Shown here: one piece after another, positions 3,885-57,441 of the stretch | Position numbering within the stretch: the first letter of the stretch is position 1 | Layout of the letters: each line of letters begins with the position of its first letter | Source: Candidatus Omnitrophota bacterium | GTDB lineage: Bacteria > Omnitrophota > Gorgyraeia > Duberdicusellales > 4484-171 | NCBI GenBank assembly: GCA_021735655.1 | Contig: JAIPGM010000006.1 | Coordinates: forward strand, 32,001 to 96,000 | Length of the DNA: 64,000 nucleotides | Direction: 5' to 3' | Translations under genes and position numbers: made by a program | Notes under the pieces: generated by a model | What the model was told of the DNA's origin: nothing | The model's database searches: none | What the model saw: the letters and a program-made list of their open reading frames with translations, nothing else

Positions 3885-4375
3885 TTTATTATTAGACTTT
3901 TGAGTTTTTTTCTTTTAGTCAGTCGAGGATAAGAAACAGGAGCGCCTAAAGCTATAACCGCTTCTAGCTCAAGGTTAGGCCTTAACTTAAGATATTTATG
4001 AACCTTTTTCTTTTGATTAAGAATCTCACCTAGCCAGCAGGCGCCTAACTTTTTAGAATGAATACAAAGTAATATGTTTTGAATACAAGAACCAATGGCC
4101 ATTAGATCTTTCTCATAATTATAAGAGGTCTTCTTATCTAAAAATACTAAAATAAGTTTATCGGCTGATTTGATAATATGACCATAATGAGTAAAAACAG
4201 CCAAAGCATCCTTTTTCTCCTTATCTAGAACCATAAACCGCCAGGGCTGGTTATTGAGTCCCGAAGGCGCCCAGCGACCAGCCTCTAAAATTTTGTTAAC
4301 CGTCTGCCTAGAAACAGCCCTCTTTTTAAACTTTCGCACTGACCTTCTATCTTTTATTAACCTTAACGCTCTCAT
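3881..4375 (-). CDS. nitroreductase family protein
   Basis: RRSVRKF...SGLNNQPWRF motifs of PF00881. Confidence 0.7.
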   Translation of the reverse strand: MRALRLIKDRRSVRKFKKRAVSRQTVNKILEAGRWAPSGLNNQPWRFMVLDKEKKDALAVFTHYGHIIKSADKLILVFLDKKTSYNYEKDLMAIGSCIQNILLCIHSKKLGACWLGEILNQKKKVHKYLKLRPNLELEAVIALGAPVSYPRLTKRKKLKSLIIK

Positions 4376-5699
4376 AGCTAGCTACTCCATTATTCTTATC
4401 GCTAAACCCTCTTTTATCATAAAGATTATCGAGCGGGCTTTCAGGGATATTTACCATATCCCTTAATATATGCGTATAAATCATTGTAGTTTCTACATGC
4501 TTATGCCCTAACAGTTCCTGGACTTCTCGAATATTAACCCCATTCATTAAAAGATGTGTTGCGAAGCTATGCCTGAGAGTATGCACGCTGGCGCGTTTTA
4601 TAATTCCGGCTTTCTTTACCGCAATAGCTACAATCTTTTGAACTGTATTGGGACTTATATGATGTCTTCGGATTTTACCACTCCTAGGATCAATTGAAAG
4701 TCGAGAAGATGGAAAAGCATACTGCCACCCCCACTCCTTAGCAGCTTTAGAATATTTGTGCTCTAAAGCATTCGGTAGATATACCTCTCCATAACCGGCA
4801 GCTTTATCTTCTTCGAAAATATTCTTAACTTGCTCTAAATGTTTTCTGAGAGAACTACCTAACGCCTGTGGCAGCATAGTGCTACGGTCTTTATCCCCTT
4901 TTGCTCCGCGTAAAAATAAAATATTGCTCTCAAAATCAATATCCTGCACTCGCAAGCGCACGAGCTCCATAAGCCGCAACCCTGAACCATAAAGCAATTG
5001 CACAATTAATAAATCTTTATTCCTTAGTTGTTCAAATAACCCTTGTATTTCCTTAACTGACAAAACTGTTGGTAATTTAGGGCCCCGCTTTGCGCGAACG
5101 GTTTCAGCTAAATTATTTACTTCTATTTTTAGAACATCTCGAAATAAAAATAAAAGTGCATTAAAGGCTTGGTTCTGGGTCGAAGATGAAACTCGACCCT
5201 CTATAGCTAGATATGTCAAATAATCTTTAACATCTTCTGGGGTTAGCTTCTGAGGATATATCTGCTTTCGCTTTCCTTTATTTAAATAATCAAAAAATCT
5301 CTTTGCCCATGTAACGTATGTCCTTTCTGTGCTATAAGAAAAATGCTTCACTCGAATGGCATTCGTCATTTTCTTTAACAAATCATCAAAATTAACATCT
5401 TCATCTTTAAATCTAGATACTTCGACAGATTTAATCTTATAAATTTGAGGTGGAGCAAAATTGTCTACATATATACTTATCGCTTCTTTGGCCTGCTGAA
5501 ATTGCCACTCTTCAATTTTTATAATCTTTAGCTTTTCAAAAAACTTTTCTTTCTGTTCCTCAAGTGATGATTTTGGACGAATACAACAGAATTTAAGAAA
5601 TCTATCTACCCAATAGGCATAAAAAGGGGCTGTTTTTTCTGTAGCTAATTTCTTTGAAATTAAAAATCTTTGAAATTGAGATAACACACCTATTTTCAT
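4347..5699 (-). CDS. intI: integron integrase IntI (tyrosine recombinase); ORF has an N-terminal extension, alternative start near 5369
   Basis: C-terminal catalytic region HTLRHSFATHLL...LLGH...TTMIYTH. Also the IntI-specific additional domain ALEHKYSKAAKEWGWQYAFPS...DPRSGKIRRHH (compare IntI1 ALERKYPRAG..W.W..VF....DPRSG.VRRHH). Transcribed divergently from the cassette array. Confidence 0.9.
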   Translation of the reverse strand: MKIGVLSQFQRFLISKKLATEKTAPFYAYWVDRFLKFCCIRPKSSLEEQKEKFFEKLKIIKIEEWQFQQAKEAISIYVDNFAPPQIYKIKSVEVSRFKDEDVNFDDLLKKMTNAIRVKHFSYSTERTYVTWAKRFFDYLNKGKRKQIYPQKLTPEDVKDYLTYLAIEGRVSSSTQNQAFNALLFLFRDVLKIEVNNLAETVRAKRGPKLPTVLSVKEIQGLFEQLRNKDLLIVQLLYGSGLRLMELVRLRVQDIDFESNILFLRGAKGDKDRSTMLPQALGSSLRKHLEQVKNIFEEDKAAGYGEVYLPNALEHKYSKAAKEWGWQYAFPSSRLSIDPRSGKIRRHHISPNTVQKIVAIAVKKAGIIKRASVHTLRHSFATHLLMNGVNIREVQELLGHKHVETTMIYTHILRDMVNIPESPLDNLYDKRGFSDKNNGVASYESVKVNKR

Positions 5700-5878
5700 G
5701 ACTTTTCTTTCTTTGCCATAAATCCAATGATATACATAATATACATTTCCTGATATTATAGATAAATTACATAATTAAAGCAACATTTTTCTTCCAAAAT
5801 CATTAAAAACATGCTAAAATTTTACTATATATATCAATAAAATATAAAAACATATATTATGCATATTAATTGTTAGAT
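5700..5878 (+). promoter_or_regulatory. attI recombination site plus putative cassette promoter Pc (TTGCCA 5713..5718, 17-bp spacer, ATAATA 5736..5741)
   Basis: AT-rich 200-bp intI-proximal spacer ending in GTTAGAT (5872..5878), identical to the core site closing attC5. The promoter hexamers were read by eye in an AT-rich background, so the promoter call is weak. Confidence 0.45.
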
Positions 5879-5905
5879 GTAAAATAAAATGATAAAAGGA
5901 GAAAA

Positions 5906-7189
5906 ATGAAGCAAATTTTGCGCTATTTTTTGGTTTTCTTTTCCCTAATTATATTTTTAAATTTATCTCCTTTTGCTTTTGGACAACAGGACCAATCCTC
6001 CGGTGATTTTATTGATGGGAATTTTGAAGAAATAGGTCGTCTCAAGAAAGATTCTCAGAAACTTGATACCAGTAAAACCGGCGATCTGTTTATGGATACA
6101 TGGATGGGGATATTAACTAGCCCAAAAGAATTTTTTTCTTGGAATACAAAAGGCGATGTCAAACTGGTCTATGATGGGAGTAACACACTGGTTGAATTGA
6201 CACAGAGTAAAGAAGGGCCTGCGTCTATAAGCCAATTCTTTGGTTTTAAAAATAAAGATGCGTCAATTGAGTTTGATGTTAAAATTATAAAGAAAACTAC
6301 CTCAGATGAATTAGAAGTGACAGTAGCAGATGTGGGTGGGCCTGCCTGGGGTAAACCCCCTGCAATAGAGATTCCGCTGGAGACATTTCGGCTCTCAACC
6401 ATTTATCCGACTAAACATATCTCCATTGACCTTTCAAATAGTAAATATTTTTTAGATAAACAAGCTAAAGATGAAGCTAATGATATGGACTTAGTTGATG
6501 CATCTATTTTTGGTACGATAACTTTTCGCTTGAAGGGAAATGCTGAAGAACCAACAACAATACGATTGGATAACCTTAAGGTTACTTATTATAAAAAAGA
6601 AGGCGAAGTGAAACGTTATTATAAAGATAATCAGCCGAAGATAGATAAATTCTATAAAGATGGTAAGCAGGAAGGTCTGGAGAAGCGTTATTATCGCAAT
6701 GGACAGTTACAGTCGGAGCACCCATATAGGAATGGTAAACTAGACGGGATACAAAAGTATTATGCTATAGATGGAAAAGTCTGGGAAGAAACGCCTTACA
6801 GAGACGGCAAGCGAGAGGGAACACAAAGACGTTACAGAAATGGGGTGCTGACGGAAGAAAGATTATATAAAAATGATAAGATGGTAGAAATTAAAATTTA
6901 TTATAAAACTGGTGAAATAAAATCAGAAGCAACGATTAGGAATGATAAGACAGAAGGGTCATCTAAAGAGTATTATAAAAATGGACAAGTAATGGAAGAA
7001 CGTATCTATAGCGATAGCCAGAGAGTAGGCGTAACAAAGCATTACTATGCTAACGGACAGCTAAAAGCAGAGATACCTTACAAGAAGGATAGAAAAGATG
7101 GCATTGCGAGGATTTATAATGAAGAAGGCAACTTAGTAAAAGAAGAAGTTTGGGAAAAAGATAAACTCATAAGTACTAGAGAGAAATAA
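5906..7189 (+). CDS. cassette 1: secreted protein with N-terminal domain and about 9 tandem YwqK/MORN-variant repeats
   Basis: Signal peptide; repeats YYKDNQ.., YYRNGQLQSEHPYRNGKLDG, KYYAIDGKV.EETPYRDGKREG etc.; strong RBS AAAAGGAG. Confidence 0.8.
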   Translation: MKQILRYFLVFFSLIIFLNLSPFAFGQQDQSSGDFIDGNFEEIGRLKKDSQKLDTSKTGDLFMDTWMGILTSPKEFFSWNTKGDVKLVYDGSNTLVELTQSKEGPASISQFFGFKNKDASIEFDVKIIKKTTSDELEVTVADVGGPAWGKPPAIEIPLETFRLSTIYPTKHISIDLSNSKYFLDKQAKDEANDMDLVDASIFGTITFRLKGNAEEPTTIRLDNLKVTYYKKEGEVKRYYKDNQPKIDKFYKDGKQEGLEKRYYRNGQLQSEHPYRNGKLDGIQKYYAIDGKVWEETPYRDGKREGTQRRYRNGVLTEERLYKNDKMVEIKIYYKTGEIKSEATIRNDKTEGSSKEYYKNGQVMEERIYSDSQRVGVTKHYYANGQLKAEIPYKKDRKDGIARIYNEEGNLVKEEVWEKDKLISTREK

Positions 7190-7206
7190 ATATTAAATTA
7201 CCCATC

Positions 7207-7278
7207 TAACAAATCAATCCAGCCGACCCTCCCCGCGCGCTGGCGCGCTTGGTCGGGCGGCTGATTTTTGTGTTATCT
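7207..7278 (+). repeat. attC site 1
   Basis: CTAACAAATCAATCCAGCCGACC ... GGTCGGGCGGCTGATTTTTGTGTTATCT; imperfect palindrome, ends in core GTTATCT. Confidence 0.8.
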
Positions 7279-7284
7279 TAAAAA

Positions 7285-8109
7285 ATGAATCAAATACAAA
7301 TGATAATAAACATAGGAATAGGTGTAATATCTGGCTTAATAACCTTCATTGTATGTGAATACATTCTTAAACCATATCTAAACCAAAAAATAAATCCTAA
7401 AAAAGTTACTAATTTTTTTAGAAGTGGACCATTTTTGTTTGTCTTGGCTGTCCTGATTGCTTTTATCTTAAGTGCCTCCAACCAACAACTGAGAATGACA
7501 TTATTTGGCCATGGCTTAGGCTCTTCTACTGTCGTTAGGGAATTAGAAAATTTATATATGTCAATTCCCGAAATGAAGGATGAAATAATTAAATCATCTG
7601 AGGGAAAGTTAAAGGAAAAAGATTTAATTAACTTGTGTCTGCAAGAAAAATTATATTATTTGAAATTAAAGCAAACCGGGAAATATTCCTACAAACAAAA
7701 TAACGCAAAGGAAGCTATTAATTTTTCAGGCAATCATAAAGTATTGTATCCGAATAGTCAGATTTACTCTGAAACAACATATACAAATGGCGAACGTTTA
7801 GATGCAAATTTTAAAGCTTATTATTACAATGGGGTCATTAGAGCAGAAATTATAACCGACAAATCTCAAATGAACGACACCACGAAAATTGTAAAATATT
7901 ATTACAACAACGGCAAAATATGGTGCGAATATAGATATCACGACAACAAACACATGACTGGTATTATTTATGACAAGGAAGGTAATATACTAGGTAAAGG
8001 AAAAGGTCTTTTTCTAGCAATTCTTATACCTGGTTATTTTGAAAAAATCGAAAGACAAGTTTACGACGTGCGCTACAATCCAAATACATTTTATGATTAT
8101 GGATTATGA
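7285..8109 (+). CDS. cassette 2: membrane-anchored protein with YwqK/MORN-variant-like repeats
   Basis: N-terminal TM segments; C-terminal YYYNGVIRAE, KYYYNNGKIWCEYRYHDNKHMTG repeats. Confidence 0.7.
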   Translation: MNQIQMIINIGIGVISGLITFIVCEYILKPYLNQKINPKKVTNFFRSGPFLFVLAVLIAFILSASNQQLRMTLFGHGLGSSTVVRELENLYMSIPEMKDEIIKSSEGKLKEKDLINLCLQEKLYYLKLKQTGKYSYKQNNAKEAINFSGNHKVLYPNSQIYSETTYTNGERLDANFKAYYYNGVIRAEIITDKSQMNDTTKIVKYYYNNGKIWCEYRYHDNKHMTGIIYDKEGNILGKGKGLFLAILIPGYFEKIERQVYDVRYNPNTFYDYGL

Positions 8110-8125
8110 GAAAATTAATAAAAGA

Positions 8126-8195
8126 TAACAAAGCAATCCAGCGGACCAATTCCGCCGCTTCGCGGCTCCATTGGCCGCTGATTTCTATGTTAGAC
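8126..8195 (+). repeat. attC site 2
   Basis: ATAACAAAGCAATCCAGCGGACC ... GGCCGCTGATTTCTATGTTAGAC. Confidence 0.8.
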
Positions 8196-8222
8196 ATAAA
8201 AAAATAGAAAATAAGGAGAAAA

Positions 8223-9077
8223 ATGAAAATAAAAGCAAAGGAGCCGTGGTTGGCAGTTTTCTTGAATCGCTTGTTGCCCGGATTAGGGTATCTTTACACG
8301 AAGAATTTAGTTAGAGCAATTATTGTATTTTTAGTCACCATATCATTAACGTTTATTGCAGTTTCGACATTGATCGCTTTTGCCAAAAACGATACGACTG
8401 TTACATCCAAAGTATTATGGGGAGTCATTATTTTTGTTGCAGTCAATTTTATATTTAATTTCGCTATCTTGATAGATGGGTATTTGTGTGCAAGGAAACA
8501 TAATCTTTCTAATGACGTAAAGCCTTCGCGCATGGGGCTTCGTATTTTTGCTATCATTGGAACTATAGTTTTATTGTTAACTGGAGGTATCTCTATTTTT
8601 CCGGTTATCTACATAAGAACTCATTTGATACAGTTTTTTAAAATGCCTACCACATCAATGGCTCCAGCGCTAAAACTTAATGATAAAATCATGGTAGATA
8701 AAAAAGCATACAATAGCAATAAGCCACAAAGAATGGAGATAGTTGTATTTCTTCCTCCTCACGATAATAGAAAGTATTACCTGAAGAGAATTATTGGTTT
8801 ACCAGGAGAAGAAGTGGAAATCAAGGACGGCAAGGTTTATATAAACAACGAGGTCATAACTAATCTATTCGTGACAAATAACTATTATTATAATCAGGGT
8901 GATTACGCCAAAAAAGGTAAAAAGATAATCGTGCCCCCAAATAATTATTATGTTTTAGGCGACAATAGCGTTTCAAGTTTGGACAGTAGATTCTTTGGAT
9001 TTGTTCCCGAAAAAAATATAACAGGAAAAGTAGTTAAAATATATTGGCCTCCTGAAAGATCAGGAAGAGTTAAATAA
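8223..9077 (+). CDS. cassette 3: signal peptidase I (S26) with about 130-aa N-terminal polytopic membrane extension
   Basis: Catalytic Ser box PTTSMAPAL, Lys box YYLKRIIGLPGEEVEIKDGKVYINNE, box E VLGDNSVSSLDSRFFGFV; RBS AAGGAG. Confidence 0.8.
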   Translation: MKIKAKEPWLAVFLNRLLPGLGYLYTKNLVRAIIVFLVTISLTFIAVSTLIAFAKNDTTVTSKVLWGVIIFVAVNFIFNFAILIDGYLCARKHNLSNDVKPSRMGLRIFAIIGTIVLLLTGGISIFPVIYIRTHLIQFFKMPTTSMAPALKLNDKIMVDKKAYNSNKPQRMEIVVFLPPHDNRKYYLKRIIGLPGEEVEIKDGKVYINNEVITNLFVTNNYYYNQGDYAKKGKKIIVPPNNYYVLGDNSVSSLDSRFFGFVPEKNITGKVVKIYWPPERSGRVK

Positions 9078-9087
9078 TAAAAATGTC

Positions 9088-9168
9088 TAACAAGTCGATC
9101 CAGCGGACTTAAAAGCGCCGCCAATTAAAGCGCAAAGCGCTTTTAAGCCGCTGATCTTGATGTTATGA
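9088..9168 (+). repeat. attC site 3
   Basis: TCTAACAAGTCGATCCAGCGGAC ... AAGCCGCTGATCTTGATGTTATGA. Confidence 0.8.
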
Positions 9169-9178
9169 GAAAAATAAA

Positions 9179-9676
9179 ATGAAAAAAATAAATAAAATTT
9201 TCTTTGTTTTAATTTGCGTTCTTTGTTCTGCGCAATTAGCACTTTATGCAGAATATAATTCAACCCTCTTAAAACATCATATACAATTTTCTCCACCTAC
9301 CGGTTGGAATCAAATTTCACTTGGCCCTTTTGCCGCAGATATAGAAGGAATTGCATTCCGCAGCCCTGATGAGAAAGCGGTAATTACCGTATCCTTGCCC
9401 AAAAAAACTAATTTTATTTCGTTTCATGGTGCTCTTATATTATTTCGTTTAAGCAAAAGGCCAAAGGAAGAAAAAATAACATTTTGTGATGAGTCATGCT
9501 ATATTTTTGATTTTGAACAAATCAATAAAAATAATATAAAAGTACTGACAAAAACCTATAAATTTTTAAAGAAAAACAAACTATATACAATCAGCTATTA
9601 TTCATCTCCCAATGAATATCGACAGTATTTACCCGAATTTAAGAAGGCGTTAGCAACGTTTAAAATTATTGAATAA
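9179..9676 (+). CDS. cassette 4: secreted hypothetical protein (165 aa)
   Basis: Signal peptide MKKINKIFFVLICVLCSAQLALYA; no recognised domain. Confidence 0.6.
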   Translation: MKKINKIFFVLICVLCSAQLALYAEYNSTLLKHHIQFSPPTGWNQISLGPFAADIEGIAFRSPDEKAVITVSLPKKTNFISFHGALILFRLSKRPKEEKITFCDESCYIFDFEQINKNNIKVLTKTYKFLKKNKLYTISYYSSPNEYRQYLPEFKKALATFKIIE

Positions 9677-9684
9677 ATGTCTCA

Positions 9685-9766
9685 TAACAAAGCAATCGAG
9701 CGGACAATCCTCGCCGCTAAATAGAATTCGGGAAAGCTCGGCTTGCCACTCATTTTTATGTTAGAC
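9685..9766 (+). repeat. attC site 4
   Basis: ATAACAAAGCAATCGAGCGGACAATCC ... GCTTGCCACTCATTTTTATGTTAGAC. Confidence 0.75.
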
Positions 9767-9778
9767 GAAAATAAAAAA

Positions 9779-10318
9779 ATGATTAAAAAGATAATAGTAA
9801 TTATTTGTTTTAGTTGCATAATCTGTTTAAATTTAGCATATTCTAAATATGTTGACCCAGACGCGATTGTTAGGATAACACGCAAAATTACTCAAAGAAT
9901 TTACAAAGATATAATTTCAATTAAAGACGAGTATGAAGAATTGAAGGGTTTTGATGAAAACTTTTATGGTAAAGGGACGAGATTCCAATATCGCATAGTT
10001 AGTCCCACAATCGAATATATTTATTGTCCTGGTACATACAATCAATCTTATGAACGAGTTATGGAATTGTATTGCAACCCTCAACCCCCTGCTATTCATC
10101 TAAGGTTAGTATTCCTTAGCGCTCCTTGTGGCACAAACAAGTGCGACATAGTTAGCATTTGTCCGGATGGAATCGAAGCCCAAATTTATATCGAAGAAAT
10201 TGATCGTTATCTAATATTCAGTCAGCGTAGTGGAAATGCTGAGCTTGATACAAAACTTATGGAAATTTTCCGCAAACACACAAAAAAATACAAAACAAAA
10301 GAAATACCTTGGGAATAG
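9779..10318 (+). CDS. cassette 5: secreted Cys-rich hypothetical protein. Start set at the internal ATG (MIKKIIVI...) because the ORF-track start at 9743 lies inside attC4
   Basis: Signal peptide; ORF confined to the cassette. Confidence 0.55.
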   Translation: MIKKIIVIICFSCIICLNLAYSKYVDPDAIVRITRKITQRIYKDIISIKDEYEELKGFDENFYGKGTRFQYRIVSPTIEYIYCPGTYNQSYERVMELYCNPQPPAIHLRLVFLSAPCGTNKCDIVSICPDGIEAQIYIEEIDRYLIFSQRSGNAELDTKLMEIFRKHTKKYKTKEIPWE

Positions 10319-10325
10319 GCTCATC

Positions 10326-10398
10326 TAACAAGGCAATCCAGCGGACCTTACCTCGGCCCTAACGGGCTTCGGCAAGGCCGCTGATTTTTGTGTTAGAT
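10326..10398 (+). repeat. attC site 5
   Basis: CTAACAAGGCAATCCAGCGGACC ... AAGGCCGCTGATTTTTGTGTTAGAT. Confidence 0.8.
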
Positions 10399-10460
10399 GT
10401 AAAATGAGATCACTAGATGAAAAAAATATTTCTATTAACATGCTATTATAGGAGGGGTAT

Positions 10461-10805
10461 ATGAAAAAAATTTTATTGTGGATGGGTTTTATAATAAACC
10501 TTTTAGCATTCTTAGGTATTGCCTGCTATGGGTCATGGTCTGTTTGGGCTGGAATACTAAGCATTTCTAAATCAGAATATGCAAATATGTATATCGTTTT
10601 CGGAATAGTTCCTGTTTTAATAAGCATTCCTTTTAATATCTTTATGAATCTTTGCTTGAACTCAATTCTGGATAAGAAGAAAAGATTCCCAACAAAATGG
10701 GTTATTTTTTCCCAATCAATCATATTTATTTTGACACCAATCGCTCTACTTACTGGGATTGCAGATTTAATTTCAGATGCATGGAGTTTTTTTACACTGC
10801 GTTAG
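10461..10805 (+). CDS. cassette 6: small integral membrane protein (114 aa)
   Basis: 3-4 predicted TM helices; RBS GGAGG. Confidence 0.55.
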   Translation: MKKILLWMGFIINLLAFLGIACYGSWSVWAGILSISKSEYANMYIVFGIVPVLISIPFNIFMNLCLNSILDKKKRFPTKWVIFSQSIIFILTPIALLTGIADLISDAWSFFTLR

Positions 10806-10850
10806 ATACCGTGCAAGTAATTAAAATTATTTAGGAAATTAAAAAACTTC

Positions 10851-10925
10851 TAACAACTCAATCCAGCTGACCCTTTGACTCGGCCTTTCAGGCCTCGCTC
10901 AGGGCAGCTGATTTTTATGTTATGT
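10851..10925 (+). repeat. attC site 6
   Basis: CTAACAACTCAATCCAGCTGACC ... AGGGCAGCTGATTTTTATGTTATGT. Confidence 0.8.
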
Positions 10926-10967
10926 GAAAATAATAAAAACATTCTCGCACAAAAAAAGGAGGAGAAA

Positions 10968-11321
10968 ATGGACAAGAAAAAAACAGATTGGACAAAACCA
11001 AGCTTGATAATGCTCGGGATTGATGTTCTGGCGCTGTTCATTATGATGATCGTTTTGGGAAATCTTGTTAATAGATTTAATGAATTATACAGTCAATTCA
11101 GCATTGAATTATCACCTATTGCACAATTTAGCTTAACCGGATATAAAATATTTTTTCTACTGCTTTTAATTGGGCTTTTGGGCAAAGAGTTTTTGAAAAA
11201 TAAAAAGGCAACATTCATAATAAATATATCGGCACTAGCTGTTACCCTTTTTATATTTGTGCCTTTTATAATTTTAGGAATATTTTTTCCTTTGTTTAAC
11301 TTAACAAGCATGGGGGGATAA
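10968..11321 (+). CDS. cassette 7: small membrane protein. Start set at MDKKKTDW after RBS AAGGAGGAG because the ORF-track start at 10875 is inside attC6
   Basis: Hydrophobic helices; strong RBS directly upstream of 10968. Confidence 0.55.
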   Translation: MDKKKTDWTKPSLIMLGIDVLALFIMMIVLGNLVNRFNELYSQFSIELSPIAQFSLTGYKIFFLLLLIGLLGKEFLKNKKATFIINISALAVTLFIFVPFIILGIFFPLFNLTSMGG

Positions 11322-11344
11322 ATTTAAAAGTTTTAATAATCACA

Positions 11345-11516
11345 TAACAAGACAATTCAGCCAACCTTCATCCGTTGCCTGTTGGGTTGGCTGGTATGCC
11401 GAACCCTTCATAATAACAAAATGCTTCGCATTTTAAGTATATGGATTCGGCATAGTTCGACTAAGTATTTTTGCTCGCAAAAATGCCAGTCTCATTAGCT
11501 GATTTTTGTGTTATAG
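11345..11516 (+). repeat. attC site 7 (atypically long, about 170 bp)
   Basis: ATAACAAGACAATTCAGCCAACC ... CATTAGCTGATTTTTGTGTTATAG; centre contains extra inverted repeats. Confidence 0.65.
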
Positions 11517-11539
11517 GAAAATAAAACGGAGGAGTTAAG

Positions 11540-11812
11540 ATGGAAAATGTAAAAAAAATATATAAAGAAGGAGTAGTAAAGGGTGTTCGTTATTTTGTTA
11601 TTACATTATGGGTTAATTTTCTATGCATTCCGTTGTACATGATAAAAAATTTCTTTGAGCCAGAGCAGGGATGGAATTTTCAAGAACACACGTTATTAAT
11701 TATTGGTTTCTGTATTCTAGTTGTTGTATATTTACCATTTGCTGTTTATTTGGCATCGAAAAGATCAAACCAACTGAATACTCCTATATTGAAAACAAAT
11801 ATTTCGATATAA
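11540..11812 (+). CDS. cassette 8: small membrane protein (90 aa)
   Basis: RBS GGAGG; two TM helices. Confidence 0.5.
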   Translation: MENVKKIYKEGVVKGVRYFVITLWVNFLCIPLYMIKNFFEPEQGWNFQEHTLLIIGFCILVVVYLPFAVYLASKRSNQLNTPILKTNISI

Positions 11813-11819
11813 TATTTGT

Positions 11820-11892
11820 ATAACAAGGCAATCCACCTGACCATACTCGCCGCTTTTAGCGGCTCGTCTGGCCGGTGATTTTTGTGTTATGT
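11820..11892 (+). repeat. attC site 8
   Basis: TATAACAAGGCAATCCACCTGACC ... GGCCGGTGATTTTTGTGTTATGT. Confidence 0.8.
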
Positions 11893-11903
11893 GAATATAA
11901 AAT

Positions 11904-12476
11904 ATGAATAAAATTGACCTTTTATTTATAGTCTGTCTTCTAGCCTTACGTTTTCTACCTAGAAAATCAGCAAAATATAGATACTATTGGGTGTTTCCTT
12001 TATTAGTCTTTTTTTTAGCTATCGGTATCCGAATTAATTCTAAAATCGAGAGTCGGAAACGTTCAGAAAGAATTCAAGAGCTAGAAAGCAATCTTAACGC
12101 TTTGCGCGATTATAGCTCTATTGCAAAACTTAATATTTTAGGCTTACCTGCTCGTGCAGGTTCAGGCATAAAATTATCTACTCCAATTTCAACTTCGCTA
12201 GAGAATGCAATAATTGAAAAGGATGGCAAATATTTCCCCACGTGCAGCAAGGAAGCGGAAGAAAAATTTAAGCAGACTATAAAATCTTATCCACGATTTC
12301 CATTTTCATACTATGGCTTAGCCGTCTGTCTCAGGAGTAAAGAAGATGAAGCTTGGAAGGATTACGCAAATCAAGCCATAGAAATATTTAAAAAAACTAT
12401 CAGCATTAAAGATCATAATTCTGGGCACGACCAAGCAATGAAAGAATTAATCAGATATTTAGAAGAAATAAATTAA
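11904..12476 (+). CDS. cassette 9: hypothetical protein with N-terminal TM/signal anchor (190 aa)
   Basis: ORF confined to the cassette; no recognised domain. Confidence 0.55.
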   Translation: MNKIDLLFIVCLLALRFLPRKSAKYRYYWVFPLLVFFLAIGIRINSKIESRKRSERIQELESNLNALRDYSSIAKLNILGLPARAGSGIKLSTPISTSLENAIIEKDGKYFPTCSKEAEEKFKQTIKSYPRFPFSYYGLAVCLRSKEDEAWKDYANQAIEIFKKTISIKDHNSGHDQAMKELIRYLEEIN

Positions 12477-12496
12477 AACTAGGTAATTAAAACACA

Positions 12497-12575
12497 TAAC
12501 AAAGCAATCCACCTGACCCTCCTCGCGGCTTCCTGAGACCGCGGGCTCGTCGGGCAGGTGATTTTTGTGTTAGGA
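12497..12575 (+). repeat. attC site 9 (last detectable)
   Basis: ATAACAAAGCAATCCACCTGACC ... GGGCAGGTGATTTTTGTGTTAGGA. Confidence 0.8.
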
Positions 12576-12646
12576 GGTAAAAATTTACGCAAAATTTTCT
12601 TTCTTTGCCAAGATTAGAATGCTATAATTGTTTTTAGGAGATAACT

Positions 12647-13378
12647 ATGTTCTGGATTTGGATAATGATTATTATGATAGTAATGGCCGCTGGGGTTGTA
12701 ACCTTAGCTCTCCTGCCGACCTCTAAAGAATTGGCTTATTTAGAAAAATTACGAAAAATAGCTGATGATTTGCTTTATAGACTAAAAAACACCTTAAGAG
12801 AAGCCTGGAAAGAAAAGAAAAAACTTCCACTACCACTTGTAATTTTGGGGGCTGTCTGGATATTGAATGGCTTATATATAAGCATAAGTACTTTAATGAC
12901 CCCTTCTCAAATCACAAAACTAGAGACTCTAGCTGGTATATTCAGGATCTTAAGCATCGGTTGGATTATTATTGGGGTAACTTTATTTAACGGCTATATT
13001 TTAAGTAGAAAATTTGCCTTTATCGCCGCAGGAATAGTAATTAGCCTTGGTATTGCTGTTATTGCAGTACCACCGCTTACCCAAGAAGAATATCTTCTGC
13101 AACAATATGAAATATATCTACAAAATCAACAGTATCAACAAAATACTCTAGGAATTAATGAATATGTAACCTCGCGGCTGGTAGATCCTGGCGAAGGTAG
13201 GCCTACGAAAGCTGAGATAACCAAAGAACAAGCTATAGCTATAATCAATATGCTTATTGCCCTGATTACGATACTTTATCTAATTACTCCGAAAGCTAAA
13301 AAATATTTTGGTATCGAAAAGGAGCAATCTTTTTCATTTAAAGAGGGAATTGGTAGTTCATTTCGTCGCTACCGCTAA
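12647..13378 (+). CDS. integral membrane protein with Gln-rich segment; the distal ORF of the array with no downstream attC
   Basis: Multiple TM helices; stop codon overlaps the era stop (convergent). Confidence 0.5.
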   Translation: MFWIWIMIIMIVMAAGVVTLALLPTSKELAYLEKLRKIADDLLYRLKNTLREAWKEKKKLPLPLVILGAVWILNGLYISISTLMTPSQITKLETLAGIFRILSIGWIIIGVTLFNGYILSRKFAFIAAGIVISLGIAVIAVPPLTQEEYLLQQYEIYLQNQQYQQNTLGINEYVTSRLVDPGEGRPTKAEITKEQAIAIINMLIALITILYLITPKAKKYFGIEKEQSFSFKEGIGSSFRRYR

Positions 13379-49154: not shown

Positions 49155-49658
49155 CTAGCGGGGGCTTAAAATCAACACCATGGTCTTACCCAGCATATGG
49201 GGCTCTCGATCAACCCTGCTAATAGGCTCAACATCCTTGAGCAACTTGCCAATAAGCCGGGTTCCGATATCTTTATGGGCTATCTCACGCCCCCGAAACC
49301 ACATCTTTATTCTCACTTTATGTTTTTTTTCTAAAAACTCTTTTACATGTTTGAGCTTAATCTCATAATCATGGGTACCAATCCGCGGACTAATTCTTAT
49401 CTCTTTTAGCTGAGTCTGTTTTTGGTGTTTTTTTACTTCGCGTTCTCGTTTTTCTTGCTCATATTTATATTTTGAAAAATCAATTATTCGACAAACTGGA
49501 GGATCAGCCTGAGGGGCCACTTCAACTAAATCTAATTCAAACTCCTCAGCCTTCTTTAGGGCCATATCACGCGGGAATACTCCCAACTGCTCTCCTTCCG
49601 GGCCAACAACTCTAACAGTTTTAGCAAGCACCCTGTGATTAACTCTTACATATTTCAC
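49155..49658 (-). CDS. infC: translation initiation factor IF-3 (the true start may be a downstream non-AUG codon)
   Basis: IF3 N- and C-domain motifs; conserved infC-rpmI-rplT order. Confidence 0.85.
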   Translation of the reverse strand: MKYVRVNHRVLAKTVRVVGPEGEQLGVFPRDMALKKAEEFELDLVEVAPQADPPVCRIIDFSKYKYEQEKREREVKKHQKQTQLKEIRISPRIGTHDYEIKLKHVKEFLEKKHKVRIKMWFRGREIAHKDIGTRLIGKLLKDVEPISRVDREPHMLGKTMVLILSPR

Positions 49659-51360
49659 TTAAAGCTTCCTCCTTTTTTAAAATATTTAAAAAATCTACTA
49701 TCTCCATGCTACCTAAATTCTTCATTCCGCGGCCTCTAAGGGAAATGTTCTTTGACTCCTTTTCCTTATTGCCAACTATAACCATATAAGGAACTTTCAG
49801 TAACTCTTTTTCACGTATCTTCTTCTGCAAAGTCTCATCTTTAATATCGGCTTCGACTCGAAACCCCTCGGCCTTCAGTCTAGCCTCAAGCTCTAAAGCA
49901 TAATCCCTTGCTTCTTGAGTAACATTTAAAACGCTTACCTGAACTGGCGCAAGCCACAAAGGAAATTTTCCGGCACAATTTTCAATCACTGCCCCAAGGA
50001 ATCTTTCAATGCTTCCCAAAATAGCTCGGTGAATCATTACCGGCCTTTCCTTTGAACTATCCTCACCGATATAAGATAAGTCGAACCGTTCCGGAAGATT
50101 AAAATCAACCTGAACCGTTGGCCCCTGCCAAAGCCTACCCAAAGCATCCTTAAGTTTCACATCTATTTTGGGGCCATAAAACACTCCGGCCCCCGGATCA
50201 ATTTCAAAGGGAACTTTCTTCTCGGTCAATGCTTCCTGCAAGATACTCTCGGCCTTATCCCAAGTTGTAGCATTGCCAACAAACTTCTCTGGACGAGTAG
50301 AAAGATTAACTTCATAGTTAAATCCAAACTTCTTCATCGTGTAATCGATAAATTCTAAAACTGAAATGATTTCGCTCTTGAGTTGACCCAGACGGCAAAA
50401 AATATGGGCATCGTCTTGGGTAAAACCTCTAACCCTAAGAAGCCCGTGTAATACCCCCGACTTCTCGTAGCGATAAACCGTCCCCAGCTCAAAAAAACGA
50501 ATTGGTAGATCTCGATAACTAACCAACTTACGCTTATAGATAAGAATATGCCCCGGACAATTCATTGGCTTAATAACATAATCCTGCTGGTCAATCTTCA
50601 TAAAATACATATTGTCGCGATAGTAGCTGGTATGACCGGAAGTATCAAAAAGATCAATTTTAGCAATATGCGGAATCGAAACTAACTCATAGCCTCGCTT
50701 AATATTTTCTTTTTTTAGAAACTCTTCAATTAGATTACGTATAATAGCTCCCTTGGGATGGTAGTAAACAAAACCAGCGCCAGCCGATTCGTGAATAGAA
50801 AAAAGATCTAATTCCTTTCCTAATTTGCGGTGGTCGCGTTTTTTAACTTCCTCCAAATTTCTTAAATGAACCTTTAACTCTTTTGGTGTATTAAAAGCTA
50901 CCGCGTAAATTCTCTGGAGAACCGGATTGGTTTCAATTCCACGCCAATAAGCTCCGGCAACCGATAAAAGTTTAAAAGCTGAAATCTTATTTGTTGATTC
51001 AATGTGCGGTCCACGACAAAGATCCACAAAGTCACCAGTCTTATACAAACTAACCTTGGTATCAGAAATCGCCTCGATAAGCTCAGCCTTGTAGGTCTCG
51101 CCTTTTTCTTTCATCAATCTTAAAGCTTCCTCTTTGCTGAGTTCAAGACGCTCAAAATTATGGTTAGCCTTAATAATCTCCTTCATCTTAGATTCTATCT
51201 TCGGTAGGTCTTCGGGAGTTAACTGTTGCGGTAAATCAAAATCATAATAAAAACCATTTTCGATAGCCGGGCCGATACCAAGTTTAGCTTCTGGATAAAG
51301 CTCCTTTACCGCAGAAGCCATAATATGCGAACAAGAATGTCTAAGTATATTCAAATCCAT
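49639..51360 (-). CDS. thrS: threonine--tRNA ligase (lacks N-terminal TGS domain)
   Basis: Begins at the editing-domain segment HSCSHIMASAV; class II core and anticodon-binding domain present. Confidence 0.9.
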   Translation of the reverse strand: MDLNILRHSCSHIMASAVKELYPEAKLGIGPAIENGFYYDFDLPQQLTPEDLPKIESKMKEIIKANHNFERLELSKEEALRLMKEKGETYKAELIEAISDTKVSLYKTGDFVDLCRGPHIESTNKISAFKLLSVAGAYWRGIETNPVLQRIYAVAFNTPKELKVHLRNLEEVKKRDHRKLGKELDLFSIHESAGAGFVYYHPKGAIIRNLIEEFLKKENIKRGYELVSIPHIAKIDLFDTSGHTSYYRDNMYFMKIDQQDYVIKPMNCPGHILIYKRKLVSYRDLPIRFFELGTVYRYEKSGVLHGLLRVRGFTQDDAHIFCRLGQLKSEIISVLEFIDYTMKKFGFNYEVNLSTRPEKFVGNATTWDKAESILQEALTEKKVPFEIDPGAGVFYGPKIDVKLKDALGRLWQGPTVQVDFNLPERFDLSYIGEDSSKERPVMIHRAILGSIERFLGAVIENCAGKFPLWLAPVQVSVLNVTQEARDYALELEARLKAEGFRVEADIKDETLQKKIREKELLKVPYMVIVGNKEKESKNISLRGRGMKNLGSMEIVDFLNILKKEEALSEICKS

Positions 51361-51997: not shown

Positions 51998-53770
51998 TTA
52001 TTCTCTAAATGGTTTATATTCTTTGCCGGACCACTGCATACCTAGGTGCCCGGAAAACTCAAGCATATTAAGTCTAACCCCGTGAACAATTACTGCCATA
52101 AATCCTAGTAGGATATTTAAAGAATGACCCAAAACAAGAATTATGGCTGCGGCTAAAGCTGCTAATGGATTGTTAATTCCTCCCGATAAAGCCATATTGT
52201 TAAAACTAGAGGCAACAACTACTGTAGCATAGCCAACTGCAAACAACCTAAGATAGGATACTATATCGGAAAAAGAGCTAATAATACTTAAAGGTAGATC
52301 AGCTAAAGAAACCAAAACTCCTTTAAAAAAATTCTTCTGGGGATTAGAAAACAAAATTACTAAACCTAAACCAACAGTTAATAACAACGGCCCCGAAGCC
52401 GGAAAAGGTTTATTTAAAATATAAGTTCCAGCCAGAAAAAATATGGCCCACAAAATAAAAATCCAGCCCACCTGAGCAAGGGCTTTCAAAGAATTAATAA
52501 AGGCAAAAGCCCGCTTTAGATGAGCTATGCTCAAATGACCCACGCCAATAAAAAGACACAAATACATCATAAAATTATGGTTAGAACCGACAAAACTGTT
52601 AATCCGGTTTATAACCAAATAATTAAACCCGGGCAACTGTCCTATCTTTTCAACCCCAAACCAAGTGCCAGTAACTGCTCCCCAAACAATCGTTGCCGCA
52701 CTTAAAACATAAGCCAGAACGAAAGGTTCTCGAGGCAGCGATCTGAATTTTCTGCTTAAGAAAAAACTCACAGTTAAAAATAAAAATCCGTAACCGGCAT
52801 CACCGATAAGCATAGCAAAAAAAAGGCTGAATGATAATAAAAACCAAAAACTTATATCAAACTCATCATAACCAGGAACGGTTCCCATAAATTTAAATAT
52901 CGGTTTCACGATTCCAATCCACCTAGGATTTTTAATTAAGGTCGGCACCTCTTGAGGATCCTCCGGTTCCTGGACCATCACTGCCCAGCCGTTTTTAGCT
53001 GCCGCTAGCTCAACTGCCTCTACTGATTGTTTAGGGCAAAATCCTTGCAAATAATAAATACCTTCCTTGAAACCTGCCCCAAACCGCACATGACCAAGCT
53101 CCAGACGCTTTAAAAGTTCTTTTCTGTAAATCTTTAAGCAGCTTCGATAGGTTGAGAACTCCCTTAATTGCTTCTCAACACTCCCGAGATCTCTTTTAAG
53201 GCCATGGATTTTTCTCTCTAAAGACTGTTGGCTTTCCTGAGGAATCCCTACCTCTAAAAAATCCAAACAATCATCATCCTTCGTGCCAATAAAAGCAATA
53301 TAGACCTCTCTTCCTTTTCTAAAAATAATCTGAATCATTTTATCTTTGGGAATACGCTTTAATGCTCTGCTATTGCACCTATATAGTTTAACAAAGGCAC
53401 CGACTCCTTTGAGTTTGTCTAAATCGTTGACTGAAGCATGTCCTAATTTTTTAACGAGCTCCAGGCGTTCTTCCAATTCTTTTAGTCTCCCAAGACACTG
53501 CTGGGTTTGTTGATTAAACCCAATAACCTCTTTAACAACTGAGGTAAGTACAATTACTGGAACATCCTTTCTTTGGTCAACCAAAGCGTCCATCAATGAT
53601 GCTGCCTGATCAAGGAGGTTGATCTTATTCTCAAGAGAATCTATTCCACCGGCATGAGGCTTTTGAATATGCTTAATATGGACTAAGCCGGTTTTCCGCA
53701 ACTCACAGAGAGCCTGGCTAAGATTCTTTTGATAAACCAAGACTGTGAGCTTTTTCATTTTAACAATCAT
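51998..53770 (-). CDS. atpI: V-type ATPase subunit I (116 kDa/a subunit)
   Basis: Hydrophilic N-terminal half, polytopic C-terminal half. Confidence 0.8.
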   Translation of the reverse strand: MIVKMKKLTVLVYQKNLSQALCELRKTGLVHIKHIQKPHAGGIDSLENKINLLDQAASLMDALVDQRKDVPVIVLTSVVKEVIGFNQQTQQCLGRLKELEERLELVKKLGHASVNDLDKLKGVGAFVKLYRCNSRALKRIPKDKMIQIIFRKGREVYIAFIGTKDDDCLDFLEVGIPQESQQSLERKIHGLKRDLGSVEKQLREFSTYRSCLKIYRKELLKRLELGHVRFGAGFKEGIYYLQGFCPKQSVEAVELAAAKNGWAVMVQEPEDPQEVPTLIKNPRWIGIVKPIFKFMGTVPGYDEFDISFWFLLSFSLFFAMLIGDAGYGFLFLTVSFFLSRKFRSLPREPFVLAYVLSAATIVWGAVTGTWFGVEKIGQLPGFNYLVINRINSFVGSNHNFMMYLCLFIGVGHLSIAHLKRAFAFINSLKALAQVGWIFILWAIFFLAGTYILNKPFPASGPLLLTVGLGLVILFSNPQKNFFKGVLVSLADLPLSIISSFSDIVSYLRLFAVGYATVVVASSFNNMALSGGINNPLAALAAAIILVLGHSLNILLGFMAVIVHGVRLNMLEFSGHLGMQWSGKEYKPFRE

Positions 53771-54378
53771 GAATTAACTAATTCCTTTTTACGCTCCAAT
53801 TTAGCTTTAGCAATCTTACCTCTAACTACTCCCGCGGTTTGTAATTCACCTAGATATATTTGAATAACTCGAATATTTTCTTTACTCTCAGGAATTTTTA
53901 CTTTCTCAAACAAATTTACCCTTTGAGTGGCAATCCTTAGCTCCTCTTTTAAAATCTCCATCTGCTGATGATAAATTAACATCTTTGCTTTTAGGATTAT
54001 CGTTTCTTTTAAGGCCTCAATAGCAGAATCAACCCATAATGGGGTAAGTAATAAGTCGTATTCTTTCTCGCTAAAATCAACTCCTGAAAAAACCGGTATA
54101 TCTATTCCGGCAACGTTATCAGTAACAGTTTTTATCTTAGCTACCTTTAAAAATTCCTCAACAGGAACTTCTTGAGCAAAAACATCAACCCAGCGCAAGA
54201 CCTGATTTCTTAAACTCTCTGTCTGACCGGCTAAATCTTTAATCGCCTGATACAATTTAATAATTTCAAGCTGAAACTGCTTTTTCTTTAGAATTAGCAT
54301 CGGCAGATAGCGCCTGAACCTGACTAAAGATTCCTTTTGACCTTTCAATTCATTCTTAGTTAGTCTAATCTTACTCAT
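53767..54378 (-). CDS. atpD: V-type ATPase subunit D
   Basis: 203 aa coiled-coil central stalk protein. Confidence 0.8.
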
Positions 54379-55685
54379 CGTTTATTGGAAAGCTGTTTAG
54401 GCCAGAATTCATCTAATAACTCGCTGCGGAAAGATGTTTCCTTAGGTTCAAAACAATCAGCCAGAATCTTCCAGCCTTGATCGAGTGCATCTTCTAAAGA
54501 TATTTTTACTGATAGGTCCATCATCTGAGATTCAAACAACTTACCATATTTAAGAAGTTTTTTATCCCACTCGCTCATCCGAAAGCCCATGGCTCGTTTC
54601 TCTTCACTTTCTCGATATTGAGCATATAGCTGGATCATCCCATCCATAATCGCCCGATGGTCTTTTCGACTCTTATCGTTAACTTGCTGTTTTAAGCGGC
54701 TTAGAGAACCAAAAGGTTCGATCCGCCCGCCGCGTAAATAAAACTGACCCTCGGTAATGTATCCGGTATTATCGGGAACCGGATGAGTTACATCATCTCC
54801 AGGCATCGTAGTCACCGCTAAAACCGTGATTGAGCCGGCGTTTTCAAAGTCAACTGCCTTCTCATACCTTCTGGCTAGCTGAGTATAAAGATCTCCGGGA
54901 TAACCCCGATTTGAAGGAACTTGCTCCATGGTAATGGCAATCTCCTTTAAAGCATCGGCAAAGTTAGTCATGTCAGTAAGAAGAACTAGGACATCTTTTC
55001 CGGCCAAAGCAAATTTTTCAGCCACGGCTAAGCTTAAATCCGGCACCATTAATCCTTCGACTACCGGATCAGAAGCAGTATGCACAAAGAATATCGAACG
55101 GGAAAGAGACCCGGCTTCTTCTAAAGTATTTTTAAAAAACATATATTGATCAAACTTAAGACCAATCCCCCCTAAAATAATCATGTCTACTTCAGCCTGC
55201 ATGGCAATTCTAGCTAACAATTCATTGTAAGGCTCACCGGACACTGAAAAAATCGGCAGCTTCTGAGAAACCACCAAAGAATTAAATACATCAATCATCG
55301 GGATATTCGTCCGAATCATCCGTTCGGGAATTATTCTTTTAGCCGGATTAACTGCTGGCCCGGAAATTTCAATTAGGTTCTCAATCAAGGCAGGTCCTTT
55401 GTCGCGAGGTTGACCTGAACCGTCAAATATTCTTCCCAGCATATTTTCCGAAAAGGCAACTTGCATCGGATGCCCTAAGAACCGCACCTCATCTTTAGTA
55501 GAAACCCCTCGACTTCCTGAAAAAACCTGTAAAGATACAATGTCTCCTTCCAATTTTATTACCTGAGCCAAAGATGACCTGCTAGCGCTTCGTACTTCAG
55601 CTAACTCCTCATAGGCAATTCCCTTAGCCTTTACAGTGATAACATTTCCGGAAACACTCAGTATTTTATTATGAACTTTTTCCAT
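54375..55685 (-). CDS. atpB: V-type ATPase subunit B (start set at internal Met; the ORF-track start at 55718 would overlap atpA by 50 bp)
   Basis: Non-catalytic nucleotide-binding subunit motifs. Confidence 0.85.
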
Positions 55686-57441
55686 CTTTACCCATTTTGG
55701 TTTCAACAAACTTTTCAATCACCTGTTCTTGCTGCTTAAATTCGGCTGACTCTTGCTGTTTATAATTCAAATCAATAAATAACTGCCTTAACTCATAAAA
55801 AAAGTTACGGGCTTTTTCTTTATGCTCAAATTCAAACTCTTGATCTAATAGATTACAAAGTTTAGCAAAAACATATTTTTGCCGACCTAGGCTAGTTGCA
55901 GCATCCACCTCATCAAAACCATTCTGTTGCAAATAAACATTATCAATAAACTCTGCCTTTAAATGGAGAATAAAGTCTTCCATCGAAGTTCCTTCTTCGC
56001 CAACTACTTTCATCATCTGAGCAACCTCATTGCCGCTGGCTAATATAGCTTTAGCTTTTTTAACTAACTCCGAATCGATAAAACCCTGATAGCGCGACCA
56101 ACTAGTCAGAGGGTCGATTGAAGGAAACCGACGAGCATTAGCTCGATCGCGAGAAAGACCATGAAAAGCACCAACCACCTTAAGCGTTGCTTGAGTAACC
56201 GGCTCTTCAAAATTACCTCCAGCCGGAGAAACGGTTCCGCCAATAGTCAAACTCCCTTTTTGACCATTTCTCAATTTAACTACCCCTGAGCGTTCATAAA
56301 ACTCAGCGATTCGAGACTCTAAATAAGCCGGGTAAGCTTCCTCACCGGGGATTTCCTCCAATCGTCCGGAAACCTCCCGCATAGCCTGAGCCCAGCGTGA
56401 AGTTGAATCAGCTAACAGCAAAACATCTAGGCCCATCTGACGGTAATACTCACCTAGAGTTGTAGCAGTATAAACTGAAGCATCACGGGCTGAAACTGGC
56501 ATTGAAGAAGTATTACAAATTATAATCGTACGCTCAATTAATGGTTTATTAGTCCGCGGGTCAACAAGCTCAGGAAACTTTCTTAAAGTCTCAACTACTT
56601 CTCCAGCTCTTTCACCGCAAGCAGCCACGATAACCACATCTATCTCAGCATAGCGACTAGTAAGCTGCTGAAGAACAGTCTTTCCCGAACCAAAGGGACC
56701 GGGAATACAAAAAGTTCCGCCTTTGGCCACTGGAAATAAACTATCTATTATCCGAGCCTTGGTAATCAATGGTTCCTGAGGAGTAAGTTTTTCAAGATAA
56801 GCAAAAATAGGAATCTTTATCGGCCATTTAAACACCATAGTCAAATCTATAATTTCACCATTAGGGCTTTTTAATTTAGCAATCGTATCTTTGGTTTTAT
56901 AGCTGCCTTCGGCGGCTATTTCCTCAACCGTATACTCATCATTAAGATAAAAAGGCACCATAATATAATGTTTAAATATCCCTTCCGGAACAACACCTAA
57001 AATGCTGCCTTTGGTTACTTTAATTTTTTTAGCCTTAACCAAAGGTTTGAACTCCCATTTCTTATTTGAATCCAAAGCCTCGATTTGCAAACCCCGGGGA
57101 AGGAAAAAACCGCACTTTTTGGCTAACTCCGGCAAAGGATTTTGCAGCCCGTCGAAAATCTGGCCCAAAAGCCCAGGACCTAGTTGAACCGAAAGCATCT
57201 GACCGGAAAATTCTACTCTATCTCCAATTCGTATCCCTTTAGTGTCTTCAAACACCTGCATATAGGCACTGTCTCCGTTTATTTTTATAACTTCAGCCAT
57301 CAAACGCTCAGTAGATGAAGCCTTTCCTTTAGGCTCACCTAGCAAACAATAGCCGACTTCGTTTTGAACAATATCGCTATCGCATTCAACAGTAATCATA
57401 TTGCCCTGAACAAGAGTAATTTTTCCCAAACGCTGGCTCAT
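55669..57441 (-). CDS. atpA: V-type ATPase catalytic subunit A
   Basis: Walker A GPFGSGKT, non-homologous insert region. Confidence 0.9.

Follow-up and report, generated by a model that had tools for sequence, protein, structure and literature searches.

Anatomy of the integron and of its first two cassettes

The stretch analysed here, 64,000 nucleotides of contig JAIPGM010000006.1 (positions 32,001 to 96,000; hereafter the window, to which all coordinates refer unless another contig is named), is deposited as DNA of a Candidatus Omnitrophota bacterium and contains a complete integron, composed of the integrase gene intI, an attI site and nine attC sites. The first two cassettes each contain a single open reading frame (ORF), and the proteins that they encode, P1 and P2, are the subject of this report. 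A previous reading, made from the letters alone (the sequence-only reading), had described positions 5873-8189 as two adjacent mobile cassettes encoding repeat proteins of a YwqK/MORN variant, likened to immunity proteins. The elements concerned are the following:

4347 to 5699, minus strand: intI, integron integrase gene, 450 aa (TIGR02249; Pfam Phage_integrase and Phage_int_SAM_4)
5713 to 5740, plus strand: promoter-like site TTGCCA-16-CATAAT, candidate Pc (10 of 12 consensus positions; the promoter type of the host may differ)
5872 to 5878, plus strand: attI crossover core GTTAGAT, read from the sequence
5873 to 7272, plus strand: cassette 1, from the attI G|TT to the attC1 G|TT
5906 to 7189, plus strand: ORF of P1, 427 aa
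7204 to 7278, plus strand: attC1, R'' ATCTAAC ... R' GTTATCT (sequence, alignment and fold)
7273 to 8189, plus strand: cassette 2, from the attC1 to the attC2 crossover point
7285 to 8109, plus strand: ORF of P2, 274 aa
8123 to 8195, plus strand: attC2, R'' AGATAAC ... R' GTTAGAC (sequence, alignment and fold)

The intI product scores 395.7 bits against TIGR02249, the integron integrase family (cutoff 265), and the attI core lies 173 nt upstream of the divergent intI start. The attC sites were judged by an R'' core of the form RYYYAAC, by an R' core of the form GTTRRRY and by the capacity of their imperfect palindrome for single-strand folding. Because the attI core GTTAGAT occupies 5872-5878, cassette 1 starts at T5873, and the R' cores GTTATCT of attC1 (7272-7278) and GTTAGAC of attC2 (8189-8195) set the limits of cassette 1 at 5873-7272 and those of cassette 2 at 7273-8189. 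The span singled out by the sequence-only reading is thus exactly that of the first two cassettes, bounded by the attI and attC cores. Both units belong to an array that adjoins an integrase and an attI, and each of them ends in an attC, as integron cassettes do.

The nine R' cores of the window lie near 7272, 8189, 9162, 9760, 10392, 10919, 11510, 11886 and 12569. When these nine sites were aligned with four from a related array (contig L001, described below), an R''/L'' box TAACAA..CAATCCAGC.GAC and an L'/R' box CTGATTTTTGTGTTA proved to be conserved around a variable centre, TAACAA...GTTA being invariant across the 13 sites. The bottom strand of attC1 folds at -19.9 kcal/mol (z -4.3 versus shuffles) with bulged bases and that of attC2 at -20.7 kcal/mol (z -5.0), within a range of z -4.3 to -6.2 for the bulged attC hairpins. 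The seventh site, attC7 (11341-11523), is about 180 nt long, versus 70-100 nt for the others, and contains a large central insertion.

The candidate Pc is oriented into the array and would drive the expression of the cassettes. The attI site of an integron is the entry point of new cassettes and its attI-proximal end is the best expressed; cassette 1 lies directly at attI. A 32-nt direct repeat (TTTTCTTTCTTTGCCA..., 81% identity) occurs at 5703-5734, in the intI-attI intergenic region, where it includes the -35 element of the promoter-like site, and again at 12595-12626, just past the last attC and upstream of the ORF 12647-13378; the two copies could represent a promoter element common to both places or what is left of a duplication of the attI region.

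In cassette 1, the P1 ATG is preceded, at a distance of 6 nt, by the Shine-Dalgarno sequence AAGGAG; the Shine-Dalgarno sequence AAGGAGAAAAATG is common to cassettes 1 and 3. No obvious Shine-Dalgarno sequence was seen at either of the possible P2 starts, ATG 7285 and ATG 7300. Public gene calls begin P2 at ATG 7300 (269 aa), and the start at 7285 (274 aa) is supported by its sole homologue, P0186, which conserves M1 and N2 there.

The mobility that had been proposed for the cassettes is borne out for cassette 1. The exact P1 protein occurs on seven contigs from six samples: L002 and L007 are the window's own locus, L001, L003, L004 and L005 represent a second context, and L006 is truncated. 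Window positions 5871-7275 recur with 100% identity over 1405 nt in L001, L003, L004 and L005, among different neighbours, and the identity ends at both G|TT crossover cores, which is the signature of the movement of a whole cassette. The L001-type array (L001 8905-11961) comprises four cassettes, each with its own attC, in the order 144-aa exported protein, DUF4019 protein, P1 and N_methyl/T2SSG pilin-like protein; no integrase was found within 9 kb on its left or 9 kb on its right. The ACP-KS-KS-ApbA cluster that flanks it has the gene order of the region to the left of the window intI, at a DNA identity of only 71.9%. For cassette 2, no second context was found. The simplest reading is that cassette 1 was very recently exchanged between two distinct lineages. 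We also considered the two contexts as paralogous regions of one genome and judged this less likely, given that the flanks keep their gene order at 72% identity and that none of the samples behind the seven contigs contains both contexts. The attC of the cassette that precedes P1 in the second array (L001 9880-9972) is near-identical to attC1, with an extra 20-nt palindromic insertion, CCTGCCTGCCGGCAGGCAGG, in its variable centre.

Two proteins predicted to be extracytoplasmic, with MORN_2-type repeats

P1 is a modular protein whose parts are laid out as follows:

Residues 1 to 26: signal peptide
Residues about 41 to 76: helical linker
Residues about 80 to 228 (nt about 6143 to 6589, plus strand): predicted CBM/MAM-like beta-sandwich (CBM, carbohydrate-binding module)
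Residues 226 to 427 (nt 6581 to 7186, plus strand): MORN_2 repeats

The N-terminus MKQILRYFLVFFSLIIFLNLSPFAFG|QQ, with a hydrophobic segment at residues 8-26 by hydropathy, is a typical Sec signal, in agreement with the 427-aa protein with signal peptide that had been announced for ORF 5906-7189. The signal is probably cleaved at AFG|QQ; an AFG|Q/S motif also closes the signals of two cassette proteins of the L001 array. The repeats obtain 95.7 bits against MORN_2 (PF07661; E 1.7e-28, cutoff 29.6), a profile search on which the MORN/YwqK call had been staked and which leaves the domain call standing; only the functional inference drawn from it falls. Compared with shuffled sequences, BLOSUM autocorrelation reveals a period of 24 residues in the segment 226-427 (lag 24, z=11.6; lag 48, z=7.5) and none in the segment 27-225. 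Aligned by register, the repeats amount to eight complete units and half of a ninth, with a unit length of 22-25 aa; among them is YYRNGQLQSEHPYRNGKLDG, which matches the consensus YYxNGxLxxExPYxNGKxDG and agrees with the earlier count of about nine tandem copies.

The AlphaFold2 model of P1 (mean predicted local distance difference test score, pLDDT, 83.6) contains the signal helix, a beta-sandwich at about 80-228 and the repeat strands. The latter are 16 in number and form eight hairpins between residues 246 and 426, mostly at pLDDT >85. Foldseek matched this segment best to Toxoplasma gondii MORN1 (6t6q, E 3.6e-7) and also to the single-layer sheets of OspA, so that the beta-hairpin repeat fold anticipated for these proteins is what structure prediction returned for P1. 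The eukaryotic MORN1 and junctophilin arrays (PDB 6t6q, 6t4d and 9uo9) display the same single-layer antiparallel arrangement of beta-hairpins as the P1 model; unlike P1, they are cytoplasmic, belong to PF02493 and have no beta-sandwich partner, and they are about 21% identical to it. A sequence search of the PDB with P1 gave no match at E<=1, and a scan of the contigs of species-representative genomes gave no confirmed relative, so that the species representatives would be without P1.

The region between the signal peptide and the repeats (residues 27-230) matched no Pfam family, nor did the homologous stretch in ten relatives. In the predicted model, it is a beta-sandwich jelly-roll superimposable on known CBMs, and its Foldseek matches include CBM30, CBM61 and MAM domains. 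The non-catalytic CBM and MAM domains compared with it (8xmz, 8zqf, CBM4/16/22/30/61 and the neuropilin MAM domain 5l73) share this predicted fold at 8-17% identity, a level at which ligand-binding residues are not assignable; with no Pfam or CAZy-type profile matched, the domain falls outside the defined CBM sequence families. When 1.84 billion representative proteins were scanned in full with HMMER, only 66 relatives emerged, which are either stand-alone exported proteins or segments of proteins of 600-3000 aa. In the giant relatives, the partner domains are FG-GAP, RTX, Big_9, cadherin-like, He_PIG, TSP_3, Ig-like or dockerin domains: judged by its relatives, the N-domain keeps extracellular company. 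One stand-alone exported homologue, P0002 (236 aa, 50% identity), ends where the P1 repeats start. In its locus (L008 2444-3312, JGI 3300045275), the next element is an attC-like site, TCTAACAA...TTGATTTTTGTGTTATC, after which a 62-aa ORF overlaps a ParE toxin gene. From P0002 and its attC-like site it follows that the N-domain circulates as a cassette without MORN repeats.

P2 is organised differently:

Residues about 6 to 28: predicted first transmembrane segment
Residues 29 to 47: loop rich in lysine and arginine (K/R)
Residues about 44 to 65: predicted second transmembrane segment, followed by a linker
Residues about 149 to 241 (nt about 7729 to 8007, plus strand): MORN_2-like units

Hydropathy places the two hydrophobic N-terminal segments at 6-24 and 44-62, in keeping with the transmembrane anchoring previously attributed to cassette 2. 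The loop 29-47 contains five K/R and no D/E residues and, by the positive-inside rule, this would put the C-terminal 210 residues outside the cytoplasm. Against MORN_2, P2 shows similarity (27.3 bits, E 2.9e-6) and remains just below the cutoff of 29.6, so that the profile confirms the resemblance and not the membership. We nevertheless call it MORN_2-like on account of its genuine resemblance to the P1 repeats (BLASTP, 43.5 bits, E 2e-9, residues 152-236). There are about three to four degenerate units, for example YYYNGVIRAE... and YYNNGKIWCEYRY..., with no significant periodicity by BLOSUM autocorrelation; the shorter stretches of the same repeat that had been noted in P2 were correctly recognised, with a weak signal. 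Among 5.8 billion proteins, P0186 (48% identity) is the only homologue, and the two proteins conserve M1, N2, both transmembrane regions, a GHGLGS motif and the repeats. As the P2 model had a pLDDT of 41, it was left out of the fold search.

The Leptospira LIC20035 family adhesin (NF033566) was the only NCBIfam match for both proteins, through its MORN_2-type repeats; membership of this family was rejected, since the cutoff is 250 bits and the matches, confined to the repeat region, reach 60.3 bits for P1 and 25.7 bits for P2.

The remainder of the array and its host

Cassettes 3-9 occupy 8190-12569. By crude hydropathy, an N-terminal signal-like or transmembrane segment is present in all nine window cassette ORFs, in all four of the L001 array and in the ORF 12647-13378 just past the last attC, and the window array seems to be given over to proteins of the envelope or for export. 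The proposal that this integron stockpiles genes of inter-bacterial conflict or surface interaction accordingly fits the evidence in its surface half (9/9 and 4/4 exported or membrane proteins) and lacks support in its immunity half. Searches with Pfam and NCBIfam detected no toxin domain in the 13 cassettes of the two arrays or in the window flanks, nor any defence domain in the 11 cassettes other than the first two of the window or in the flanks. There is no space for a toxin gene in cassette 1 or cassette 2, and a PADLOC search with the eight window cassette proteins other than the peptidase, and with the ORF that follows the array, was negative.

Cassette 3 encodes, at 8223-9077 on the plus strand, a signal peptidase I (TIGR02227, 157.9 bits; Peptidase_S26, 147 bits) with an N-terminal extension of about 120 aa that contains three hydrophobic segments and weakly matches DUF6677; here, a secretion enzyme of the housekeeping type is carried as a mobile cassette beside cassettes for exported proteins. 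The array also holds several small multi-transmembrane proteins.

Like the sedentary chromosomal integrons of Vibrio, Xanthomonas and Treponema, the window integron combines intI, attI and homogeneous attC sites with promoterless single-ORF cassettes, many of which have no known function and many of which encode exported proteins. It differs from them in its host, which belongs to an uncultivated candidate phylum, in its shortness (nine cassettes) and in the fact that all its cassettes are of the envelope/exported kind. The threonyl-tRNA synthetase (ThrRS) of the window has a 100% identical counterpart in an NCBI metagenome-assembled genome labelled Candidatus Omnitrophica. After it, the closest relatives with a name share 66-72% identity and carry the labels Margulisiibacteriota, WOR-1 or Saganbacteria; given these labels, the phylum assignment is uncertain and may be wrong. 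The host lineage is uncultivated. Elsewhere in the window, a V-type ATPase operon with identified subunits I and A (49639-51360 and 51998-57441) lies near thrS, pheT, dnaG and gatA.

Envelope binding or toxin neutralisation

The model that we favour, and which we consider more likely than not, is that P1 and P2 are envelope or surface binding or scaffolding proteins, adhesin- or lectin-like, and not cytoplasmic toxin neutralisers. In this model, the two attI-proximal single-gene cassettes would each put an array of MORN_2 hairpins outside the cytoplasm. P1 would be exported by the Sec pathway and would then consist of a beta-sandwich, which would recognise a glycan or another ligand, followed by an elongated single-layer sheet of about eight MORN_2 hairpins acting as a spacer, an oligomerisation surface or a protein-binding surface. 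In P2, a hairpin of two helices would serve as the inner-membrane anchor, with the K/R-rich loop in the cytoplasm and the short array of MORN_2-like units exposed to the periplasm or on the cell surface.

Several observations converge on this model: the export of the two proteins, the extracellular-type N-domain of P1, the predicted role of related proteins in adhesion, the function of the solved MORN arrays and the enrichment of signals in cassette proteins. The best-scoring named homologues of the P1 repeats (27-30% identity over about 43% of P1) are the exported MORN2 proteins of Fusobacterium and Helicobacter bilis described by McGuire et al. 2014 (PMC4222103), in which tandem units of 22-24 aa stand behind a signal peptide as they do in P1. 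In Fusobacterium, 87% of the MORN2 proteins have signal peptides and a role at the surface or in adhesion has been predicted for them (PMC4222103). Unlike P1, these proteins (about 546 aa) are without the CBM/MAM-like N-domain, and their genes expand by local chromosomal duplication and are not integron cassettes. The solved eukaryotic MORN arrays are modules of protein-protein interaction and dimerisation (PMC7725318). Signal peptides are over-represented among cassette-encoded proteins at large (16.1% versus 6.8%), as are cell-interaction functions (PMC10661359).

Some considerations weigh against this model. The ligand-binding role of P1 and P2 is one that we infer, and the functions of the close MORN_2 proteins are likewise only predicted. 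A CBM-like fold, itself a prediction, is not proof of sugar binding, because the jelly-roll is also found in the protein-binding MAM and ephrin-receptor domains. The P1 signal and the P2 topology were deduced from hydropathy and from the positive-inside rule, the P2 model, built on a two-sequence alignment, is unreliable, and the Pfam score of P2 lies under the cutoff. Finally, export is in itself compatible with immunity, because immunity proteins directed against periplasm-acting toxins do have signal peptides.

An immunity role was the interpretation of the sequence-only reading, for which P1 and P2 were YwqK-type immunity partners of polymorphic toxins, and it is here that this reading loses its support: there is no toxin gene nearby, the proteins are exported or anchored, P1 has an extracellular-type domain, and the YwqK name borne by homologues is derived from a domain. 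In Bacillus subtilis, YwqK is a protein of 154 aa encoded right after ywqJ, and it co-purified with YwqJ, an LXG deaminase toxin of the type VIIb secretion system (PMC6562991, PMC13648612). What P1 and P2 have in common with it is the name 'YwqK family antitoxin' given to MORN_2 proteins. Compared by their descriptions, YwqK shares one operon with a toxin that reaches the cytoplasm, whereas P1 and P2 are exported or anchored, larger, made of several parts and devoid of a toxin neighbour. Neither shows the toxin-adjacent or operonic placement of YwqK, and neither is a small cytoplasmic globular protein, P1 being a 427-aa two-domain protein with a signal peptide and P2 having two transmembrane segments. 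The name itself is attached to homologues on the basis of MORN_2, and by crude hydropathy 93 of the 119 closest Met-starting homologues have a signal-like N-terminus, including Fusobacterium proteins called 'YwqK family antitoxin'. A literature text search for MORN together with immunity protein yielded no evidence for an immunity role of MORN proteins, its matches being mostly to the word 'morning'.

The immunity hypothesis can be reformulated so as to dispense with a neighbouring toxin: the cassettes would encode orphan immunity proteins, stockpiled in the integron, which neutralise the periplasm- or membrane-acting toxins of competitors. In its favour, MORN_2 is the domain of the proteins named 'YwqK family antitoxin', in Paracaedibacter-like endosymbionts some YwqK-named genes adjoin vgrG (PMC8163844), conflict genes abound in integrons (PMC10661359), and toxin-free poly-immunity loci are documented in the portion of the polymorphic-toxin catalogue of Zhang et al. 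2012 considered here (PMC3482391). The same portion of the catalogue lists Imm6, a mostly alpha family, as the immunity protein of the YwqJ deaminases, mentions neither MORN nor YwqK, and describes immunity proteins that are nearly all cytoplasmic and globular (PMC3482391). The connection of MORN with YwqK is accordingly a putative one. With 13 cassettes and flanks free of toxin domains, no PADLOC hit, an extracellular-type CBM/MAM-like domain in P1, and a YwqK name that is domain-derived and given mostly to homologues with signal-like N-termini, we regard such orphan immunity as unlikely.

A role at the envelope could also be directed to the cell itself, P1 and P2 binding its own peptidoglycan, polysaccharide or outer membrane for tethering or remodelling without any part in contacts with foreign cells or with surfaces. 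The extracytoplasmic location of both proteins and the inner-membrane anchor predicted for P2 are consistent with it, as are the signal peptidase I and the several small multi-transmembrane proteins of the array and the capacity of MORN arrays to dimerise and scaffold (PMC7725318). A core function would however not be expected on a mobile, strain-variable cassette, and the relatives of the P1 N-domain belong to typical secreted adhesin-like giants; these points make the self-directed role improbable in our eyes, even if sequence alone does not separate it from the binding role that we favour. That the two cassettes are functionally neutral passengers, shuffled by the integron without current benefit, is less probable still, and indeed very unlikely. 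Their near-orphan status would fit it (one homologue of P2 among 5.8 billion proteins, 66 relatives of the P1 N-domain among 1.84 billion representatives), but each ORF is intact and takes up the whole of its cassette, the P1 cassette recurs without a difference in at least six samples and two genomic contexts and occupies the best-expressed position, and P2 and P0186 retain conserved motifs at 48% identity.

P1 and P2 are additions to kinds already known, the integron cassette and the exported MORN_2 protein of bacteria, and they do not overturn the current views of integrons. The presence of one cassette at 100% identity in two arrays of divergent uncultivated genomes constitutes a clean natural example of what, on the simplest reading, is active cassette exchange outside the cultured Proteobacteria. 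The label 'YwqK family antitoxin' invites an annotation error and should not be taken as evidence of immunity for exported MORN_2 proteins. The N-domain of P1, predicted to be CBM/MAM-like and as yet unnamed, defines an extracellular family of 66 relatives that could join the domain databases. The array hints that some chromosomal integrons specialise in envelope or surface proteins; that the integron of this lineage is a dedicated bank of such modules, and not a mixed bag of genes, is a bolder proposition which we hold to be rather doubtful. The literature describes Omnitrophota-type cells that are small and host-dependent. If the hosts of this integron are of that kind, the swapping of cassettes could retune their attachment to partners or prey, and the N-domain of P1 would in that case be a new family of ligand recognition.

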